Positions 29,458 to 37,448 of a DNA stretch of 64,000 bases are shown in pieces. Below the pieces are notes generated by a model, which saw nothing but the letters and a program-made list of their open reading frames with translations, ran no database searches and was not told the origin of the DNA. The stretch's first letter is position 1, and each line of letters opens with the position of its first letter. Made by a program: the position numbers and the translations under genes. This DNA is from Candidatus Enterousia sp. Lineage in GTDB: Bacteria > Pseudomonadota > Alphaproteobacteria > Rs-D84. The DNA is taken from the NCBI GenBank assembly GCA_045613785.1, contig JAZLBQ010000024.1:1-64000 (forward strand), in the 5' to 3' direction.

Positions 29458-30741
29458 TTATTCGTTATTATTTTTTTCACTGTTGATTTTCTGACGTAGA
29501 TTATCCCAATAATCTAGTCGTTTTTTAATTTCACGCTCAAAACCACGTTCAACGGGTTGATAGAATTTTTGACGTCCCATCGATTCGGGAAAACAGTTCT
29601 GACCAGAGAAACCATTTGCGGTGTCTGGGTCGTAAATATAGCCGTCGTTATACCCCAGATTCTTCATCATTTTTGTTGGGGCATTTAAAATATTTTTTGG
29701 AGGCATTAAACTGTCTGTGGCACGGGCGGCTGCGTATGCAGCCTTTTGTGCACGATAATTTCCAATGCTTTTTGGGGCTGTGCCAAGATATATTACCAGT
29801 TGTGTCAGAGCAAGGTCGCCTTCGGGACTGCCCAGGCGTTCGTATGCCTGCCACGCCGCAATCGCAATTTGTAATGCGTTCGGATCAGCCAGACCAACGT
29901 CTTCGACAGCGAAGCGGGTCAAGCGACGAAATATATACATCGGATCTTGGCCAGATGTCATCATGCGTGCTGTCCAATATAGGGCTGCGTCTGTGTCGCT
30001 GGCACGCAGTGATTTATGGACAGCGGAAATTAAATTGTAATGTTCATCGCCGTGCTTGTCAGACAGTGGGGCACGCTTTTGCACAACGCCCGCTAATGTT
30101 TCTGGGGTAAGTGGCTCGTTGAAATTTGCGTTTAGCAAATATTCAACTGTGTTTAATAAAAATCGTGCGTCGCCGTCAGCCATCTGAGCCAGGTGAATTC
30201 GGGCGGAATCGTCTAAGGGTAATTTTTTAGATGAAAATTCTTCGGCACGTTCCATCAGTATCATTAGGTCTTGGCTGGATAAAGGTTGCAAAACACCAAC
30301 GTGGCAACGTGAAAGCAATGCGTTGTTTAAATTAAAACTGGGGTTTTCAGTTGTCGCACCAATAAAGGTGACTGTCCCATCTTCTAGATAGGGTAGTAAT
30401 GTATCTTGCTGGGTTTTATTAAATCTGTGGATTTCATCAATAAACAGCAATGTGTTGCGACCAATGTCGTGATTCATACGGGCGGCATCCATTGTCTTTT
30501 TTATGTCGGCTGTGCCAGAAAATACCGCTGACATCGGAACAAAGTCCATGTCAACAGAATTTGCCAGGGCACGTGCAATTGTTGTTTTCCCACATCCGGG
30601 GGGGCCCCATAAAATCAGATTTGATAACTTTTGATTGTCAACCATACGACGGACAAGTCCGTTTTCGCCCAATAGGTTTGTTTGCCCAACAACATCGTTT
30701 ATCGTGTTTGGACGCATTAAATCCGCAAGTGGTCGTGTCAT
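29458..30741 (-). CDS. rarA: Replication-associated recombination protein A (MgsA)
   Basis: PLADLMRP, WGPPGCGKTT, FIDEIHRF, GATTENPSF, SAVHKSLR, EDVGLADP. Confidence 0.96.
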   Translation of the reverse strand: MTRPLADLMRPNTINDVVGQTNLLGENGLVRRMVDNQKLSNLILWGPPGCGKTTIARALANSVDMDFVPMSAVFSGTADIKKTMDAARMNHDIGRNTLLFIDEIHRFNKTQQDTLLPYLEDGTVTFIGATTENPSFNLNNALLSRCHVGVLQPLSSQDLMILMERAEEFSSKKLPLDDSARIHLAQMADGDARFLLNTVEYLLNANFNEPLTPETLAGVVQKRAPLSDKHGDEHYNLISAVHKSLRASDTDAALYWTARMMTSGQDPMYIFRRLTRFAVEDVGLADPNALQIAIAAWQAYERLGSPEGDLALTQLVIYLGTAPKSIGNYRAQKAAYAAARATDSLMPPKNILNAPTKMMKNLGYNDGYIYDPDTANGFSGQNCFPESMGRQKFYQPVERGFEREIKKRLDYWDNLRQKINSEKNNNE

Positions 30742-30811
30742 TTTACTTGGCTTTTATTTAGTGTTTATTTGTGATATAATAATGTTATTAAATTGTAAAG
30801 GAAAGTGCAAG

Positions 30812-31168
30812 TTGGTAAGTAAAAATTCAGAATGGACATTAGCAGTTGCAAACTTGGCGGCGGCGGCAATCGCTGCTAATCCTACGTTGTCAATGGAAGA
30901 GGCAGTGCGACGTGCAAGGGAAATCTTGCGTGGGACATCTGTTACACAGCAACAAATCGAAGATTCTGTGCAACCCGATAAAATTCAATGCTTGGAAGAC
31001 GGAACGTGGCACGTGATGTTGCGACGCTATGTAAAACGTCGCTTTAACTTGACACCACAACAGTATCGTGAAAAGTGGGGATTGCCTGATGACTATCCGT
31101 TCGTAGCACCAGCATACGCACGAAAACGTTCAAAAATTGCAAAAAAATCAGGTCTTGGGAGAAAATAA
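30812..31168 (+). CDS. mucR: MucR/Ros-family transcriptional regulator
   Basis: 'CLEDG...MLRR...LTPQQYREKWGLPDDYPFVAPAY..KRS.IAK..GLG'; start uncertain (TTG 30812 behind 'aaggaaag', or ATG 30782). Confidence 0.9.
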   Translation: MVSKNSEWTLAVANLAAAAIAANPTLSMEEAVRRAREILRGTSVTQQQIEDSVQPDKIQCLEDGTWHVMLRRYVKRRFNLTPQQYREKWGLPDDYPFVAPAYARKRSKIAKKSGLGRK

Positions 31169-31169
31169 A

Positions 31170-33260
31170 ATGGCATACAGATATATCACAAAGGCAGAAA
31201 AATTAGGACGTGGAGCAAAGTCTTTGGCTGCATCGCTGGATAAAAGACGTGCAAAATTGGCAGGGGTAGAAGTGCCAGATACTGTGCAATGGGCAGAGGC
31301 ACTTGATTATAAAAATTTTGATTTTGACAAGTTTGTGACTTGGCTGGGCGAAGTCGGAAAAACAGGTGGTAAGCACACAGGTGTTGTGGCGTTGTGGCTG
31401 AGTAAATATTTGGTTTTGGTTGGAAATAAAATCTTTGTTGACAATCCTGTGTTGCGTCGTTTGGATAAATTGGCAAAAAATACCGCAAAGTCTTGGGAAG
31501 AGGCAAAGTATGAAGAAACAGGCAAGAAAAAACACAAACCTTCAAAGGTTGCAAAGTTTGTAAAAGAACAGCCATGGACAGTTGGCTATCTGGTTTATTA
31601 TGCAATGTTGGCTTCTATTGCAATGGGGTGGGGGGCACTTGATAATGATAAATCCCAGGAAAAAGAAGAAATAAAAAATGAGTCAAGAGAAGAAGTAAAC
31701 CCAGCAGTTGTTGTTGAGCCTATTGAGGAAACAAAACCAGAGGCTGTTGTTAAACCTATTGAGGAAGCAAAACCAGAAGTAACCCCAGAGCTTGTTGCAG
31801 AGTCTGTTCAAGAAATTGTTCAGACATCTGATATCAATACGATTGACCCAATGTCATCGGGATATGTGAAAAAGGCAATAAATGAATATTGGCCAGAAAT
31901 TGCAGTCGGATTGACAGAACTTGAAACATATCGGGCAAAGGCAAAACGTCATGGTTCGGAAGCACGCTCAACTAATGGGTTGGGGATTACTTATACATAT
32001 TATTATGACAGGGCAGGAAATTTATATCGCAAAGATAATCCAATAGATGCAAAAAAAGTAAAACAATTTGACACGGCTGGAAATTATGAACAGGCGAAAC
32101 GTCATATGATTTATGAAGTCTTGCCTGCACTCCAAAGAGCAACCGGGGGAAAGAAAAATATAGAAGCACAGCAGGCAATTGCTATTGTATGGGCGGGACA
32201 TCAAAGACCTGCAGATATGAATGAAATTGCAAGACGTATTTCAAATGCAACGACAGTGCAGCAGGTGGCAGATGCATTTGCATATTATCCAGGAGCTTTG
32301 AAATGGAGAGAGGGAACTTTGATACGTCGTTGGTGGTGTGCTGCATATGCAGTTGGTTTAATTGATATGAAGGATTTCCTTAGTTTAAGACCAGATGCTT
32401 TTTCATCGATAAATGTCAATAATGTTTACAGAGATGGGCATTTCTTGCTGGGGGAAGAAACGGTTAAATATGCACTGAACCGAGCAAAGGGAAGTAAACG
32501 GACGGTGTCGGGTTTTATGGATGATTTTGATGGCGGACGAAAAATGCTGGCAACTGTAAATGGAAGAGTCGCTGGAAAAAAATTGGTTTTGTTAAGAGGT
32601 GGTTCAAAGGACAAAATTTTTGAAAGTTCTATGGCAAAATTGAATAGTGCTACTGCTTTGTTTGCAAAGGCGGATTATAAGGGAGCTGTCAAGTTGTGTG
32701 AAGAAGCAATTAAATTGGATCCTGATAATATGGAAGCATATAGCAGTCTGGCATTGGCGTATAAAAAATTAGGAGATAAGGAAAAGTCAATCTCGTATTA
32801 TGAAAAGTGTCTTGCAACTGTTGTGGCTGGAAATAAGCGTATGAATGAAAATAAGTCTTTGCTGATGGATTATGATGTAAAGGCTGCGTCTTATTTTAAT
32901 GCAGGTATGGCACGTGAAGAAATGGCAAAACTGTATCTGAAAACAAAGGATAAGGAAAAAGCACAACAGAATTTCAGAAAAGCTTTGAAGAATTATCAGA
33001 CTTCACTGGAAAATGCAGAGGTTGATAATATGAGCGAAAGAAGAAAACAAGTATATAAAGAAGCTGTTGAAAGAGTAGAAAAACAATTGAAGGAACTTGA
33101 TGGACAGGATAAAGGTAAAAAACTGGCGTTGTCAATGGATGCAGGAATAAAGAAAATACGCCAAAGAAATGCACTGAATAGTTCAGCAAAAAAATCACGG
33201 GGAGATGCGTTGTTGTATGGAAACGCAAAAATTGTCGGTGACGGAAATGAACTGGCCTGA
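31170..33260 (+). CDS. Membrane protein with a lysozyme (GH24)-like middle domain and C-terminal TPRs
   Basis: TM at 'WTVGYLVYYAMLASIAMGWG'; 'LTELETYRAKA...STNGLGITY' and 'GTLIRR'; TPR 'AIKLDPDNMEAYSSLALAY'. Confidence 0.65.
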   Translation: MAYRYITKAEKLGRGAKSLAASLDKRRAKLAGVEVPDTVQWAEALDYKNFDFDKFVTWLGEVGKTGGKHTGVVALWLSKYLVLVGNKIFVDNPVLRRLDKLAKNTAKSWEEAKYEETGKKKHKPSKVAKFVKEQPWTVGYLVYYAMLASIAMGWGALDNDKSQEKEEIKNESREEVNPAVVVEPIEETKPEAVVKPIEEAKPEVTPELVAESVQEIVQTSDINTIDPMSSGYVKKAINEYWPEIAVGLTELETYRAKAKRHGSEARSTNGLGITYTYYYDRAGNLYRKDNPIDAKKVKQFDTAGNYEQAKRHMIYEVLPALQRATGGKKNIEAQQAIAIVWAGHQRPADMNEIARRISNATTVQQVADAFAYYPGALKWREGTLIRRWWCAAYAVGLIDMKDFLSLRPDAFSSINVNNVYRDGHFLLGEETVKYALNRAKGSKRTVSGFMDDFDGGRKMLATVNGRVAGKKLVLLRGGSKDKIFESSMAKLNSATALFAKADYKGAVKLCEEAIKLDPDNMEAYSSLALAYKKLGDKEKSISYYEKCLATVVAGNKRMNENKSLLMDYDVKAASYFNAGMAREEMAKLYLKTKDKEKAQQNFRKALKNYQTSLENAEVDNMSERRKQVYKEAVERVEKQLKELDGQDKGKKLALSMDAGIKKIRQRNALNSSAKKSRGDALLYGNAKIVGDGNELA
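31710..31777 (+). repeat. In-frame 36-nt tandem duplication
   Basis: gttgtt(g/a)a(g/a)cctattgaggaa(a/g)caaaaccaga x2, encoding VV(E/K)PIEE(T/A)KPE. Confidence 0.85.
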
Positions 33261-33269
33261 TGAAGCAAG

Positions 33270-35282
33270 GTGGCGGATATGAAAGTATTTGTTGATGTTC
33301 ACGATAAACGTTGGAATAAGTATAAAATTGACTTTGAAAAAATCGCTAATACGGCGGTTTCTGGCGTGCACAAGAATTCAGAGGTATCAATTGTTTTGGT
33401 CGATGATTCTGAAATTCATGAATTAAACAAGAATTATCGTGGTATGGATAAACCTACGAATGTTATCTCTTTTGAATTGGGTGATGATGTTTTGTTGGGG
33501 GATATTTATATATCTTTTGATACCGCACTGCGTGAGGCAAAAGATGAAAATATTAGCCTAGAAAATCATGTGGCTCATTTGGTTGTGCATGGGGTCTTGC
33601 ATTTGCTGGGATTTGACCACATAACTGATGATCAGGCAAATATAATGGAGATGAAGGAAATTCAAGTATTGAAAAAATTAGGAATAAAAAATCCGTATCA
33701 GGACGAAGAAGATTTTGTGTGCGATTGTGAAGAGTGTTGTCCAGGGGGACGTTTCTTGTCTTGGTTTCGGAAACTAACAGTTAAAGAAAATGGGGTGTTG
33801 CAATACGCTCTATACGCAGTGTTTGGTGGACTTGCTGCATTTGGGTTTGCTCCATTTTATCAGTGGTGGTGGACAATTGTTGGTGTGGCAGGTGCGTTTT
33901 GGTTGACTGTCAGAAATAAAAATATTGGTGGGTTCTGGCAATCGTTGATGCGGGTCGCACCCTTTGGTGCAATGTATTCAGTTGCTATGTTTTGGTGGGT
34001 TCTGAATTCTATTTATGTTGTTCCAGAATTGGCCGAGCAATTTGCAATTTGGACATTGCCTGGAATTGTTGGGTTGGCACTGGCTGGTGTCTTTATCTTT
34101 TCTTGGCCGTTTGTTGCAGTGGCACAGAAGAAATTTAGTGCAGGGGGGCGAGTGTTCTTGTTCGCCGCTGTTTGGACACTGGTTTTGTGGGGGCGTGAGT
34201 GGTTGTTTACAGGTTTCCCATGGAATCCAATTGCAAATATAACAATGCCATGGCCAATGTTTGCAAATGCAATGTCGTTGTTTGGAACTTTGGGGTTGAC
34301 CTTTGTTATTGTTGGGGCGATTGCAGTTCTGGTTGAACTTTTAAGAAACCCAAAAAGCAAAGTTTTATGGTGTGTTTTGTTTGTCTTTGCTTTGCTGTTC
34401 GGTGGTGGGCTGTTCGCTGGCTATAAAAATATGCAAGCAAGTGATGTGGGGGCAGAAAATCCTGCGGTTTTGTTTCGAATCGTTCAACCTGCACAATCGC
34501 AATCACAAAAGGCAACACATAATCGTCAAAGTGCGTTAGAGCAGGCTCAGTTTAATTTACAAAATCTGGCTAAACTAGCAATGCAACCTGGAAATCCAGA
34601 TGTTATTGTTTTTCCTGAAACAACGTATCCTTTTGTTGTTGTGGAAAATGATAATATTGAGTTAGCACGTGTTTTGCAACGGCCTGTTATTATCGGAGCG
34701 ACAAGTTTTGATGCAGGAAAAATATTTAATTCTATGTTACTGATAGAACAAAATGGAGAAATTCAAAAGATTTATAGTAAATCGCATTTAGTGCCATTTG
34801 GTGAATATAGCCCTTTGGGGATATTGCCAAGTCCTGCAAATTTAACACGTGGAAATGGCCCAGAAATTTTGTCTGTCGCAAATTTAAAATTCGCACCAGC
34901 AATTTGTTATGAGGTTATTTTTTCTGATTCGTTATTAAATAGCGATGCTGATGATGTTCAGGCAATTATAAATATAACTAATGATAATTGGTTTGGTAAG
35001 ACACCTGGAATATATCAGCACTTGGATATGGTGCGGCGTTATGCAATCGAATCGGGTATGCCAATTATTCGAGCAAACTATTCTGGAATCAGTGCATTTG
35101 TTGGGGCAGATGGAGTGGTCATATCTTCTTTGCCTGTTGGGGCGGTTGATGTCCTGGACGGATATGTGTGGGGTGGACATAAAACACCATATCGTATGAT
35201 TGGTTTGAATAAGATGATGATACTGATTTTATTGGTCGCAATGTTGGGAATTGCATGTTGTCAGAAATTTGAAAAAGACTAA
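33270..35282 (+). CDS. ybeY-lnt: Fusion: endoribonuclease YbeY and apolipoprotein N-acyltransferase Lnt
   Basis: YbeY: LN..YRG.DKPTNVISF, LGDIYIS, HLVVHGVLHLLGFDH. Lnt: TGFPWN, FPET, YSKSHLVPFGEY, ICYE, NITNDNWFG, RANYSGIS. Confidence 0.92.
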   Translation: MADMKVFVDVHDKRWNKYKIDFEKIANTAVSGVHKNSEVSIVLVDDSEIHELNKNYRGMDKPTNVISFELGDDVLLGDIYISFDTALREAKDENISLENHVAHLVVHGVLHLLGFDHITDDQANIMEMKEIQVLKKLGIKNPYQDEEDFVCDCEECCPGGRFLSWFRKLTVKENGVLQYALYAVFGGLAAFGFAPFYQWWWTIVGVAGAFWLTVRNKNIGGFWQSLMRVAPFGAMYSVAMFWWVLNSIYVVPELAEQFAIWTLPGIVGLALAGVFIFSWPFVAVAQKKFSAGGRVFLFAAVWTLVLWGREWLFTGFPWNPIANITMPWPMFANAMSLFGTLGLTFVIVGAIAVLVELLRNPKSKVLWCVLFVFALLFGGGLFAGYKNMQASDVGAENPAVLFRIVQPAQSQSQKATHNRQSALEQAQFNLQNLAKLAMQPGNPDVIVFPETTYPFVVVENDNIELARVLQRPVIIGATSFDAGKIFNSMLLIEQNGEIQKIYSKSHLVPFGEYSPLGILPSPANLTRGNGPEILSVANLKFAPAICYEVIFSDSLLNSDADDVQAIINITNDNWFGKTPGIYQHLDMVRRYAIESGMPIIRANYSGISAFVGADGVVISSLPVGAVDVLDGYVWGGHKTPYRMIGLNKMMILILLVAMLGIACCQKFEKD

Positions 35283-35283
35283 G

Positions 35284-35307
35284 AAAACCGCCGTATAGGC
35301 GGTTTTT
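35284..35307. terminator. Bidirectional terminator (identical copy at 56632)
   Basis: aaaaccgcc-gtata-ggcggttttt. Confidence 0.85.
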
Positions 35308-35524
35308 AATTTTGTGAAATTCGTAATATCATTTGATTTAGAACCCATACCCGAACTGCTGATGATAGGTTCGTGTTTGCAGAGCGGTTTTCGTCGATTT
35401 CATTTATAATCGTTGCGACTGGTTTGCCACTGCGAATTGCCAGGGCGTTTAATGCATCAATAAATTCGGGTTCAAGTGTGATACTGGTTTGGTGGCCAGC
35501 AAGTGATACAGATAACTTCTTCAT
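35306..35524 (-). CDS. Ribbon-helix-helix (RHH_4-like) protein
   Basis: SVSLAGHQTSITLEPEF...L...ID......NLSSAVRVWVL. Confidence 0.88.
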   Translation of the reverse strand: MKKLSVSLAGHQTSITLEPEFIDALNALAIRSGKPVATIINEIDENRSANTNLSSAVRVWVLNQMILRISQN

Positions 35525-35531
35525 TTTTTAT

Positions 35532-35966
35532 TTACATTTTTCCTGCAATTAAACAATCTGATAATGCTTTATACGGGTCATCATAGCGACGTAATGGGGA
35601 TAATGTCAAGTTGTCGAACATATAGCAAACCCCAAATGCATCAAATCCAAACCAGAATAAATCATTACGACCAAATATTGTTTTGCCCATCGTTTGCGGT
35701 ATGTTTGTTAGGTCTTGGTTAAATTCAAGAATTGTTGGTGCAGGGAAATGTAATCCTTGGGCGAATTCTGATGGTCCAAATATATAACCGTTGCCCAGAT
35801 TTATCCCACCGGTATGTGTGTAAAGCTCAATCATAAATGATGGCAACATTGCACGACGGTGTTGTTGCAATGATGTGTTTATCAGTGAAACCTGACTCAT
35901 TGGGGCAGGTGGTGTTAGAACTGCACCACGGGACTGGATAAATGATAAAAATTCAGAGCATGTCAT
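35532..35966 (-). CDS. SUKH/SMI1-KNR4-like (immunity-family) protein
   Basis: 'LPSFMIELY..TGG.....GYIFG', 'ILEFN', 'IFGRND' pattern. Confidence 0.6.
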   Translation of the reverse strand: MTCSEFLSFIQSRGAVLTPPAPMSQVSLINTSLQQHRRAMLPSFMIELYTHTGGINLGNGYIFGPSEFAQGLHFPAPTILEFNQDLTNIPQTMGKTIFGRNDLFWFGFDAFGVCYMFDNLTLSPLRRYDDPYKALSDCLIAGKM

Positions 35967-35980
35967 ACTTGTCCCTTTGG

Positions 35981-36481
35981 TTATTCACGGCCGCCTGCAA
36001 GTTGAGCACTCATTTGTGCAAGACGGTCTTCGGTTGCGTTGCCACCATCGCCACCACCAGCAGTGTGTGCAGGTAGGTATATCTTTTTCGCTGGGTTGGG
36101 TAACCATATCGTTTGAGCCCCAGTTTGTCCAATAATAAAACGATCAAGGTTATTGCTGTGCGGAAATGTCCAGCACATAAATAAATTGTCTAGTTCAAGT
36201 TTGCCGCCAAACGCCAGTGGAATTCGAAAACGAAAAGATATGTTCTGGGGAATGCTTTGCCCCATAATCAGACCCATAAATTCGTCCTGGGTTAGATTCA
36301 TAAATGCTAATGTTTCAACCGAATCGGTTAGCGTTGTTATGAATTCGTGGACAAGTTTTTTATACTGGTTAAACCAATCCGCAGGAATGTTTGATGGTGT
36401 GGGGTGTATCTCCATCAGGGGCATATCTGACATGCCCATATCTGATAATATCTTTTCTGCGGAGCCTTGTGTCAATTGCAT
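35981..36481 (-). CDS. Degenerate HNH toxin-like domain protein
   Basis: 'G.SIPQNISFRFRIPLAFGGKLELDNLFMC..FPH' follows the G..P.gy.vHH..PL..GGtN...NL.l....H pattern with HH lost. Confidence 0.55.
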   Translation of the reverse strand: MQLTQGSAEKILSDMGMSDMPLMEIHPTPSNIPADWFNQYKKLVHEFITTLTDSVETLAFMNLTQDEFMGLIMGQSIPQNISFRFRIPLAFGGKLELDNLFMCWTFPHSNNLDRFIIGQTGAQTIWLPNPAKKIYLPAHTAGGGDGGNATEDRLAQMSAQLAGGRE

Positions 36482-36494
36482 CTTTTATCCTGTG

Positions 36495-37448
36495 TTAAAT
36501 TTTCGAAATGTAATCAATTACTGTTGAAATATATGATGAGAACGCTTCGAAACTTTCGTCGTCTGTTATAGGTGGATTTTTATGGGATTCCATATAAGTC
36601 CTTAATTCAGACGGGGTCGCAAATGTCAATATGTTCGCAGCACCAGGTGCTGATGCGTCGGGGGCAGAAATAACAAAGCCGTGAATGTTGATGACAACAT
36701 CGTCCAATGTGTCGTTGAATATTTCTTGCATTGTATCAATGGCACTTTGAAGGGCGGTGGTTGGAACACCAACTGCACCAATCCACAAGGTTTCATTTGT
36801 GCCAATGGCAATCAGGTTTGTTTGAAGATTGCCGATTCGGGCATTTTCTTTTGTTGTATAGCCAGAGTTTTTAAATATTTCCGGAAGTTCTGGCCAGTTT
36901 TGTTGCGAAGGTTGTGGTATTGAATTTGTTGTCGTGGGGACTGTAAAACTTTGTGTTTGTGAAGCACTGGGTAATGATGGAGTAATGCTGATGTTCAAGC
37001 GTGGTGGACGTGATAGACCTATTTCAGAAGTTTGAGGTGCTGTTGTTACAGGGGCGGTCGTCGCAGTCGGTGTTTGTTGAACAACAGGTTGTGGTGCAGG
37101 TGTTGCAGGTGTCGTTGCGTTTTGTGGCACTGCAGTTGTAGGCACTGGGGCAGGCGTTTGTTTTACAATGGCTTGTGATGATTTTTCAGGTTGGGTAATT
37201 TTTATTTTCTTGCGTGGTCGCAATAAGAAATGTAATCCCAGAACCATTATTATCACGGTTAGAACCGTTGAAATATAAAAATCGGGCTTTACCGGTTGTT
37301 GCGAGGCCTGCATATAAGCCAAATGCTGCCAGTGGGCAGATGAAAATATGTTAAAGCCGAATTTTATGTTAAACCAAAATGATGCACCAAGTATCGATAT
37401 GCTTAGCCATAAAAGTGATAGTAAAATGTTGTCTAGTTTATTTCTCAT
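36495..37448 (-). CDS. Two-TM protein with Pro/Thr-rich linker and C-terminal restriction-endonuclease-like fold (inactive-looking)
   Basis: Two TMs; P/T/Q linker; 'EIFKNSGY......IG...TNLIAIG....LWIG'. Confidence 0.55.
   Translation of the reverse strand: MRNKLDNILLSLLWLSISILGASFWFNIKFGFNIFSSAHWQHLAYMQASQQPVKPDFYISTVLTVIIMVLGLHFLLRPRKKIKITQPEKSSQAIVKQTPAPVPTTAVPQNATTPATPAPQPVVQQTPTATTAPVTTAPQTSEIGLSRPPRLNISITPSLPSASQTQSFTVPTTTNSIPQPSQQNWPELPEIFKNSGYTTKENARIGNLQTNLIAIGTNETLWIGAVGVPTTALQSAIDTMQEIFNDTLDDVVINIHGFVISAPDASAPGAANILTFATPSELRTYMESHKNPPITDDESFEAFSSYISTVIDYISKI

Follow-up and report, generated by a model that had tools for sequence, protein, structure and literature searches.

YbeY is a near-universal protein with a role in the maturation of the 16S rRNA 3' end and in ribosome quality control, whose mode of action is debated. 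Lnt attaches the third acyl chain to lipoproteins and consists of eight transmembrane (TM) helices and a nitrilase-like domain that acts in the periplasm. The sharing of an operon by YbeY and this membrane enzyme in Proteobacteria is unexplained; in Alphaproteobacteria the canonical gene order is miaB-phoH-ybeY-corC-lnt. To our knowledge, no case joining YbeY to Lnt has been described, and full-text literature searches for a YbeY-Lnt fusion found no description of one. The E. coli operon ybeZ(phoH)-ybeY-ybeX(corC)-lnt is treated in passages of two articles (10.1101/2023.03.20.533420; PMC12421838). Here we describe a gene that encodes both enzymes in one reading frame, found in a 64,000-nt stretch of DNA (the window) from Candidatus Enterousia sp. 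(GenBank assembly GCA_045613785.1, contig JAZLBQ010000024.1, positions 1 to 64,000 of the forward strand).

Fusions of both proteins with other partners are known: the mycobacterial Ppm1 unites an Lnt-like domain with polyprenol-phosphate-mannose synthase, and in plants a chloroplast YbeY carries a C-terminal haloacid dehalogenase (HAD) domain. YbeY and Lnt thus tolerate partners there as they do here, although the partners and the ends at which they are attached differ. Relative to free-standing YbeY (1xm5) and Lnt (5n6m; E. coli 5n6h), the fused protein has kept sequence, fold, the His triad of YbeY and the Glu-Lys-Cys triad of Lnt, whereas the two enzymes are covalently joined by a 32-residue linker and YbeY is predicted to be tethered to the membrane. 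Compared with the E. coli operon and the alphaproteobacterial cluster, the same two enzymes follow each other in the same order, but they occupy a single frame, and the upstream neighbor is a tetratricopeptide repeat (TPR) protein instead of miaB. The accessory genes of the operon are not seen: neither PhoH nor the CorC_HlyC domain was found in the window's own genome (1.04 Mb, 26 contigs, 96.5% complete), which bears out the earlier remark that corC is missing at this locus.

According to passages of PMC12306168, Candidatus Enterousia belongs to the uncultured alphaproteobacterial order Rs-D84, and the bacteria described there live in the gut of farm animals, have a very reduced metabolism and carry genomes of about 1 Mb or less; the words 'fusion' and 'lipoprotein' do not occur in those passages. 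The window's genome contains one YbeY match and one Lnt match, both within the fused gene, so that this single polypeptide, or its products, would have to supply both functions. Since Lgt and LspA, which act ahead of Lnt, as well as Era are encoded elsewhere in the genome, both pathways are otherwise in place.

A single reading frame for YbeY and Lnt

The open reading frame (ORF) at 33270..35282 (+) of the window comprises 670 residues when counted from its GTG codon. The preliminary description had taken this GTG as the start; the single ORF stands, while the start most likely lies at the ATG at 33279, which gives a protein of 667 residues. The ATG is preferred because fused homologues start with MKV, because it is preceded by a Shine-Dalgarno-like sequence, and because contigs from two other studies (X5 and X7) run without one base at position 33271 of the window. 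This strain difference falls inside the GTG-started extension, and the 1-nt deletion breaks the GTG frame, so it is compatible only with the ATG start.

Three Pfam domains were found in the ORF: YbeY (residues 16-137, E-value 5e-36), LNT_N (186-348) and CN_hydrolase (429-622). Both corresponding NCBIfam equivalog models scored above their curated cut-offs, with 135.1 bits for YbeY (TIGR00043, cut-off 45) and 241 bits for lnt (TIGR00546, cut-off 132.9).

The N-terminal 140 residues are a predicted complete zinc-dependent YbeY endoribonuclease (PF02130, 123.8 bits, cut-off 25). This part matches E. coli YbeY 1xm5 in phmmer (E-value 2e-27), and in Foldseek the model superimposes on 1xm5 with a target-normalised template modelling score (TM-score) of 0.83 and a root mean square deviation of 2.5 Å. 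The domain closes in N-P-Y, which is where free-standing YbeY stops; unfused relatives end 0-2 residues past this motif. The zinc motif H-x3-H-x5-H, which had been read as intact, is indeed present and aligns with that of E. coli YbeY. Across 51 aligned fused proteins H104 and H114 never vary and the conservation of H108 is at least 90%, and R54, which is invariant or at least 90% conserved in the same set, aligns with E. coli R59, a residue that we take to be functionally important.

The C-terminal ~495 residues are likewise predicted to be a complete Lnt. The bit scores were 60.4 for PF20154 and 88.6 for PF00795, residues 177-657 match P. aeruginosa Lnt 5n6m (E-value 1e-21), and Foldseek returned the same chain with an E-value of 9e-23 and a TM-score of 0.80, among 20 matched Lnt entries (E-values about 1e-22, target-normalised TM-scores 0.75-0.83). 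The Lnt triad also proved intact: E447, K501 and C543 align with the PET, K-x-x-LVPFGE and CYE motifs of solved Lnt chains such as 5n6m, and all three are invariant in the 51 fused proteins. The secondary structure of the AlphaFold2 model shows the eight TM helices of Lnt, with the nitrilase-like domain between TM7 and TM8.

The AlphaFold2 model was built from a 51-row alignment of fused proteins and reached a mean predicted local distance difference test (pLDDT) of 84.8 and a predicted template modelling score (pTM) of 0.72. It contains a YbeY fold at residues 1-133 (pLDDT about 77-91 across residues 1-140), seven long helices within residues 173-388 (173-189, 196-212, 219-246, 252-283, 288-309, 332-356 and 361-388), an alpha/beta domain at 399-636 and a last helix at 643-666. 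With seven predicted TM helices ahead of the periplasmic domain, the N-terminus, and with it YbeY, would be cytoplasmic, and the basic segment ahead of TM1 (R158, R164, K165, K169) fits the positive-inside rule. The predicted topology thus agrees with the initial suggestion that YbeY is anchored on the cytoplasmic side of the inner membrane, where it would be tethered as one copy per Lnt. A complex prediction of residues 1-169 against 170-667 gave no answer (score 0.00, mark 0.32) and speaks neither for nor against docking of the two parts.

Table 1. Features of the ybeY-lnt fusion gene in the window. Residue numbers, including those of the His triad, R54, E447, K501, C543 and the linker cysteines, follow the numbering of the 667-residue protein.
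Feature	Residues	Position in window	Strand	Basis or remark
ybeY-lnt fusion gene		33279..35282	+	667 codons and stop; ATG 33279 the likely true start; GTG 33270 of the preliminary description lies 9 nt upstream
Shine-Dalgarno-like AAGGTGG		33267..33273	+	Read from the sequence; 5 nt ahead of the likely start ATG 33279
YbeY endoribonuclease domain, closing in N-P-Y	1-140	33279..33698	+	Pfam PF02130; phmmer; Foldseek
Zinc-binding His triad H104-x3-H108-x5-H114 (HGVLHLLGFDH)	104-114	33588..33620	+	Aligned with HxxxHxxxxxH of E. coli YbeY
Linker: acidic stretch, Cys cluster, amphipathic basic helix	141-172	33699..33794	+	AlphaFold2 pLDDT about 48-57 over 141-170 in blocks of 10 residues, helix 157-165
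Cys cluster C148-D-C150-E-E-C153-C154-P-G-G, conserved core C-x4-C-C-P-G		33720..33749	+	DNA pattern match 33720-33745
Lnt membrane domain, predicted TM helices 1-7	173-388	33795..34442	+	PF20154 LNT_N; AlphaFold2; Foldseek
Lnt periplasmic nitrilase-like domain	399-636	34473..35186	+	PF00795, E-value 5e-25
Lnt catalytic residues	E447; K501; C543	34617-34619; 34779-34781; 34905-34907	+	Aligned to P. aeruginosa Lnt 5n6m
C-terminal TM helix 8	643-666	35205..35276	+	AlphaFold2 helix
Junction-crossing contig, X5 record 12		Whole stretch
Junction-crossing contig, X7 record 16		33494-34240
Junction-crossing contig, X11 record 2		33581-33925

The YbeY and Lnt fusion, proposed earlier from this one sequence, is real and conserved: Pfam and NCBIfam models, homologue clusters and sampled genomes agree on it. 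In a search of a 5.8-billion-protein set, YbeY, LNT_N and CN_hydrolase were all present in each of the 120 best clusters listed (62-89% identity, 662-688 aa). Among the 120 best long YbeY-containing proteins, 118 have the three domains and the other two are truncated, and a search with the YbeY region alone (residues 1-145) gave only Enterousia-type proteins among the best 120 of 561 matches, a result that carries no information on other lineages. We also sampled 121 genomes of the order Rs-D84. A match was present in all 81 other genomes of the genus and lay in a single open frame in 80, while nine of the ten sampled genomes from the family's other genera carry one open frame of 620-686 aa. 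The two exceptions (G061 in the genus and G026 in another genus) are broken at contig ends.

Near-identical DNA was seen in gut samples of ruminants and other animals (20 public runs, 11 studies), and contigs from three independent DNA studies span the junction with neither a gap nor a stop (Table 1). That the frame is an artefact of assembly or sequencing, through loss of a stop codon or a frameshift where the two parts meet in this metagenome-assembled genome, is extremely improbable: the 120 listed clusters all share the open frame, as do 80 of the genus's 81 other genomes, and the junction has zero gaps in the three studies. An error at the junction is ruled out by the homologues together with the gapless contigs.

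In a global scan of 1.84 billion representatives at 50% identity, of which the best 150 matches were considered, about eight putative full-length two-domain proteins were found (P0121, P0122, P0123, P0124, P0126, P0128, P0136 and P0139), the remainder being fragments or Lnt alone; on these sequences the YbeY-Lnt architecture appears confined to this lineage. One 816-aa representative (P0198) is matched in its Lnt part alone, as would be expected of a protein with a C-terminal extension.

A continuous ORF might still yield two proteins, by a restart of translation in the linker or by a protease cut, in which case YbeY would be soluble and the fusion merely compact coding. Such an arrangement would find some basis in the Pro-Gly-Gly codons of the window, which read AGGGGGA and are followed 7 nt on by an in-frame TTG, and in the predicted flexibility of the linker (pLDDT about 48-57). 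The combination of a Shine-Dalgarno sequence and a start codon is not conserved, however: the number of distinct sequences with ATG, GTG or TTG does not exceed 8 of 31 in any column between the Cys cluster and TM1, and an internal start as a conserved feature is thereby ruled out. The Pro and Gly codons are free to vary at the third position, and the conserved Cys, Pro and Gly of the linker are encoded by all synonymous forms in 30 distinct sequences (TGT/TGC; CCA/CCC/CCG/CCT; GGA/GGC/GGG/GGT). As these residues are kept while their codons vary, it is the protein that is constrained, and translation runs across the junction in this frame. An internal start would not, in any case, prevent synthesis of the full-length product. 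We therefore regard two separate proteins as highly improbable, and it is very probable that the cell makes the two halves as a single functional polypeptide with YbeY tethered on Lnt.

Two points temper this conclusion. The full-length protein could be cleaved after translation in the low-confidence linker. Transcription across the junction is only weakly hinted at: in one metatranscriptome library two contigs (33274-33745 and 33729-34535, overlapping by 17 nt) tile it, and these could stem from DNA carry-over. The parts of the gene that lack contigs in RNA library X20 (34539-35105) are evidence of nothing.

Public annotations name these proteins only 'apolipoprotein N-acyltransferase' or '(probable) rRNA maturation factor', and with such single-function names automated pipelines may score ybeY as missing in these genomes.

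Origin of the fusion

The arrangement of ybeY and lnt in the other families of the order (f2 to f6) ranges from separate to fused genes. In family f6, ybeY and lnt lie on different contigs (G006, G015, G011). In family f5 they are adjacent, with a gap of about 40 nt in G010, while in G005 the lnt ATG starts 2 nt past the ybeY stop. In several genomes of genera g10, g18 and g19 of family f3 the two genes are adjacent in different frames, and their stop-to-stop frames overlap by 29-44 nt, or by more in G031. In G001 of family f2 (L018:2285-2400, +) both genes are in the same frame, separated by a single TAA and 12 nt, an arrangement that is one substitution short of fusion. Fused genes were found in G003 of family f4 and in G039, which represents genus g20 of family f3. 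This series from separate through overlapping genes and an in-frame stop to fusion offers a clean example of how genome shrinkage creates domain architectures.

In five genomes (G118, G068, G003, G005 and G010) miaB lies directly upstream of ybeY-lnt, as expected of a shrunken miaB-phoH-ybeY-corC-lnt cluster. The CorC_HlyC domain was found above the cut-off in none of the 121 sampled genomes, with sub-threshold matches in two. The preliminary description held that the loss of corC fused its neighbors. The absence of corC is supported, but it does not serve as the direct cause: it is order-wide, yet most families outside f1 are unfused, which makes the loss a precondition that predates the fusions.

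In a maximum-likelihood tree built from 77 rows and 512 columns of the Lnt domain, families f1 and f4 formed one wholly fused clade (98 in the Shimodaira-Hasegawa-like approximate likelihood ratio test, SH-aLRT), and the fused G039 was nested within the otherwise unfused f3 clade (SH-aLRT 100). The minimum number of state changes on this tree is two. A constraint that put all 53 fused rows in one clade was rejected, with a log-likelihood lower by 106 and a p-value of 4e-07 in the approximately unbiased (AU) test. The phylogeny thus points to at least two origins of the fusion, one in the ancestor of f1 and f4 and one in a genus of f3. This count is weakened by the fact that the group for the AU test was named after the tree had been seen, and by several long branches. 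Among the 91 family members sampled, none was seen to have gone back to separate genes.

The comparison shows the following steps. The loss of corC in the order Rs-D84, together with the loss of phoH as in this genome, left ybeY and lnt abutting or overlapping; the loss of a stop codon or a change of frame then merged them, at least twice. On this account, the fusion would be a tolerated, now fixed by-product of the compaction of the operon and the genome, and the whole is best explained as a modest new domain architecture produced by operon shrinkage.

Selection for the fusion itself would imply a real functional coupling of the 'Rosetta stone' kind, with YbeY acting at the membrane together with Lnt or with envelope biogenesis. 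Coupling of YbeY to the envelope would, if true, account for the long-puzzling conservation of the ybeY-lnt operon across Proteobacteria; passages of 10.1101/2023.03.20.533420 and PMC12421838 report that the two genes share an operon in E. coli and Salmonella. The at least two origins and the lack of reversion in the sampled family also fit this explanation. Against it, abutting or overlapping genes fuse easily in shrinking genomes, so repeated fusion needs no selection; the short, unrelated linkers of different lineages show no common interface; and in family f6 the two genes are found on different contigs. Selected coupling therefore seems unlikely, and operon shrinkage remains the preferred explanation.

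Whatever its cause, the fusion is a natural experiment that extends across a whole bacterial family, in which the sole copy of YbeY would be tethered 1:1 to Lnt. With YbeY present only in this form, and with no YbeZ/PhoH or CorC homologue found, a free soluble YbeY and its usual partners appear to be dispensable, at least in tiny cells.

A side observation concerns two genera of family f2, in which ybeY abuts a tandem Lnt-Lnt ORF: 1177 aa in G007 (L069:2420-5950, +) and about 1145 aa in G012 (L070). Each of these ORFs contains two LNT_N and two CN_hydrolase stretches, and by eye the Glu, Lys and Cys residues are apparently kept in both copies.

The linker and its cysteine cluster

The linker of the window, in which the string EEDFVCDCEECCPGG can be read directly in the ORF, contains the Cys cluster listed in Table 1. 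The conservation of its cysteines, a check named in the preliminary description, holds in part: C148, C153 and C154 are conserved and C150 is not, and neither the other fused genera nor 14 of the 82 Enterousia genomes have the cluster. The pattern C-x(3-6)-CC occurs in 117 of the 120 best clusters, with variants in the other three.

When the linker length is counted from N-P-Y to the GFAP motif of TM1, two types can be told apart. Every other fused genus has short linkers (22-37 residues, with no Cys cluster), and so do 14 genomes of the Enterousia genus. Long linkers (43-61 residues) contain an acidic stretch, a Cys cluster that mostly ends in C-P-G, and an amphipathic basic helix with the consensus K-I-R-E-N-x-F-W-Q-Y. 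Within the genus, linkers were tallied in 82 genomes, the window's own among them, from the coordinates of the fused genes, DNA pattern matches lying within the gene and direct reading of the genes that were left. The strict form C-x4-C-C-P-G was present in 46 genomes and other clusters with at least two Cys in 19; two genomes have one Cys, 14 have no cluster, and one is interrupted by a contig break. Clusters with at least two Cys thus occur in 65 of the 82 genomes, and the number of Cys ranges from 2 to 11. Variant linkers have five Cys in G087 and four in G073, G093, G112, G049, G120, G056 and G108. In locus L085 (G086), the tether has 11 Cys in about 30 residues and a metallothionein-like look.

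From the comparison of these linkers, the Cys cluster and the amphipathic helix are a later insert of about 20-25 residues within Candidatus Enterousia, placed just before TM1. On the Lnt tree the cluster occurs in two clades of the genus and is missing from a third clade of nine rows; most likely it was gained once, in the ancestor of the genus, and later lost, but two separate gains could also have occurred. The Cys-rich character of the linker is held by selection at the amino-acid level, as the codon usage described above indicates. Two other candidate origins were rejected. Descent of the linker from a corC relic is ruled out, since corC is missing order-wide and the linkers of the basal fused genera are short and lack the insert. 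A hairpin or repeat origin is ruled out because the DNA is unique and free of hairpins: within 33640-33860 no inverted or direct repeat was found except one 11-nt pair 199 nt apart, and nowhere else in the genome is there a significant copy of the 102-nt linker DNA.

The cluster consists of CxC, CC and CxxC units among Asp, Ser, Gly, Asn and Lys, with drifting Cys number and spacing. In composition only, these short low-complexity runs with 2-11 Cys resemble metallothionein clusters, from which they differ in being very short and in matching no Pfam metallothionein family. A loose metal-thiolate site is favored over a zinc finger or an iron-sulfur motif because the segment is Cys-rich, its spacing drifts, it has expanded to as many as 11 Cys, and a zinc enzyme lies nearby. 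The cluster may accordingly be a tether that binds Zn2+ or Cu+ at the membrane surface, a role that we consider possible but short of probable; other candidate roles are S-acylation, redox sensing and that of a purely structural turn.

Several observations count against metal binding as a central function of the fused protein. A Pfam scan of the 11-Cys variant, at E-values up to 10, found no metallothionein or other Cys-domain match, and the low AlphaFold2 confidence in the linker means that no metal site is predicted. Since the cluster is absent from every other fused genus and from 14 of the 82 genomes of the genus, it is not needed for the fusion to work; judged from these sequences it is dispensable, having apparently been lost in the 14 genomes. 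A more elaborate proposal, that the cluster is a membrane-surface Zn/Cu buffer or sensor that loads, protects or gates the zinc site of the tethered YbeY somewhat in the manner of a cysteine switch, together with a true link between the final step of 30S maturation and the biogenesis of the envelope or of lipoproteins, is doubtful. In either case, the cysteine tether is a small module that is open to direct testing.

Genes surrounding the fusion

Upstream of the fused gene, window positions 30635-33260 (+) hold a small ORF and a 707-aa TPR-repeat protein. The TPR ORF ends at 33260, and its co-transcription with the fusion gene is plausible. The C-terminal half of the small ORF presumably resembles a regulator of the MucR/Ros type. 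A similar set of ORFs was recognized by eye ahead of the fusion in G090 (L031), while more basal genera have miaB at this place.

Downstream, a convergent group at 35306-37448 (-) comprises an RHH_4 ribbon-helix-helix gene and ORFs of 144, 166 and 317 aa; these three ORFs gave no Pfam match. Look-alike ORFs of 140-175 aa and 260-290 aa were recognized by eye beside the fused gene in other genera as well (loci L019, L020, L021, L022, L030 and L031), which suggests a conserved neighborhood of uncharacterised proteins.

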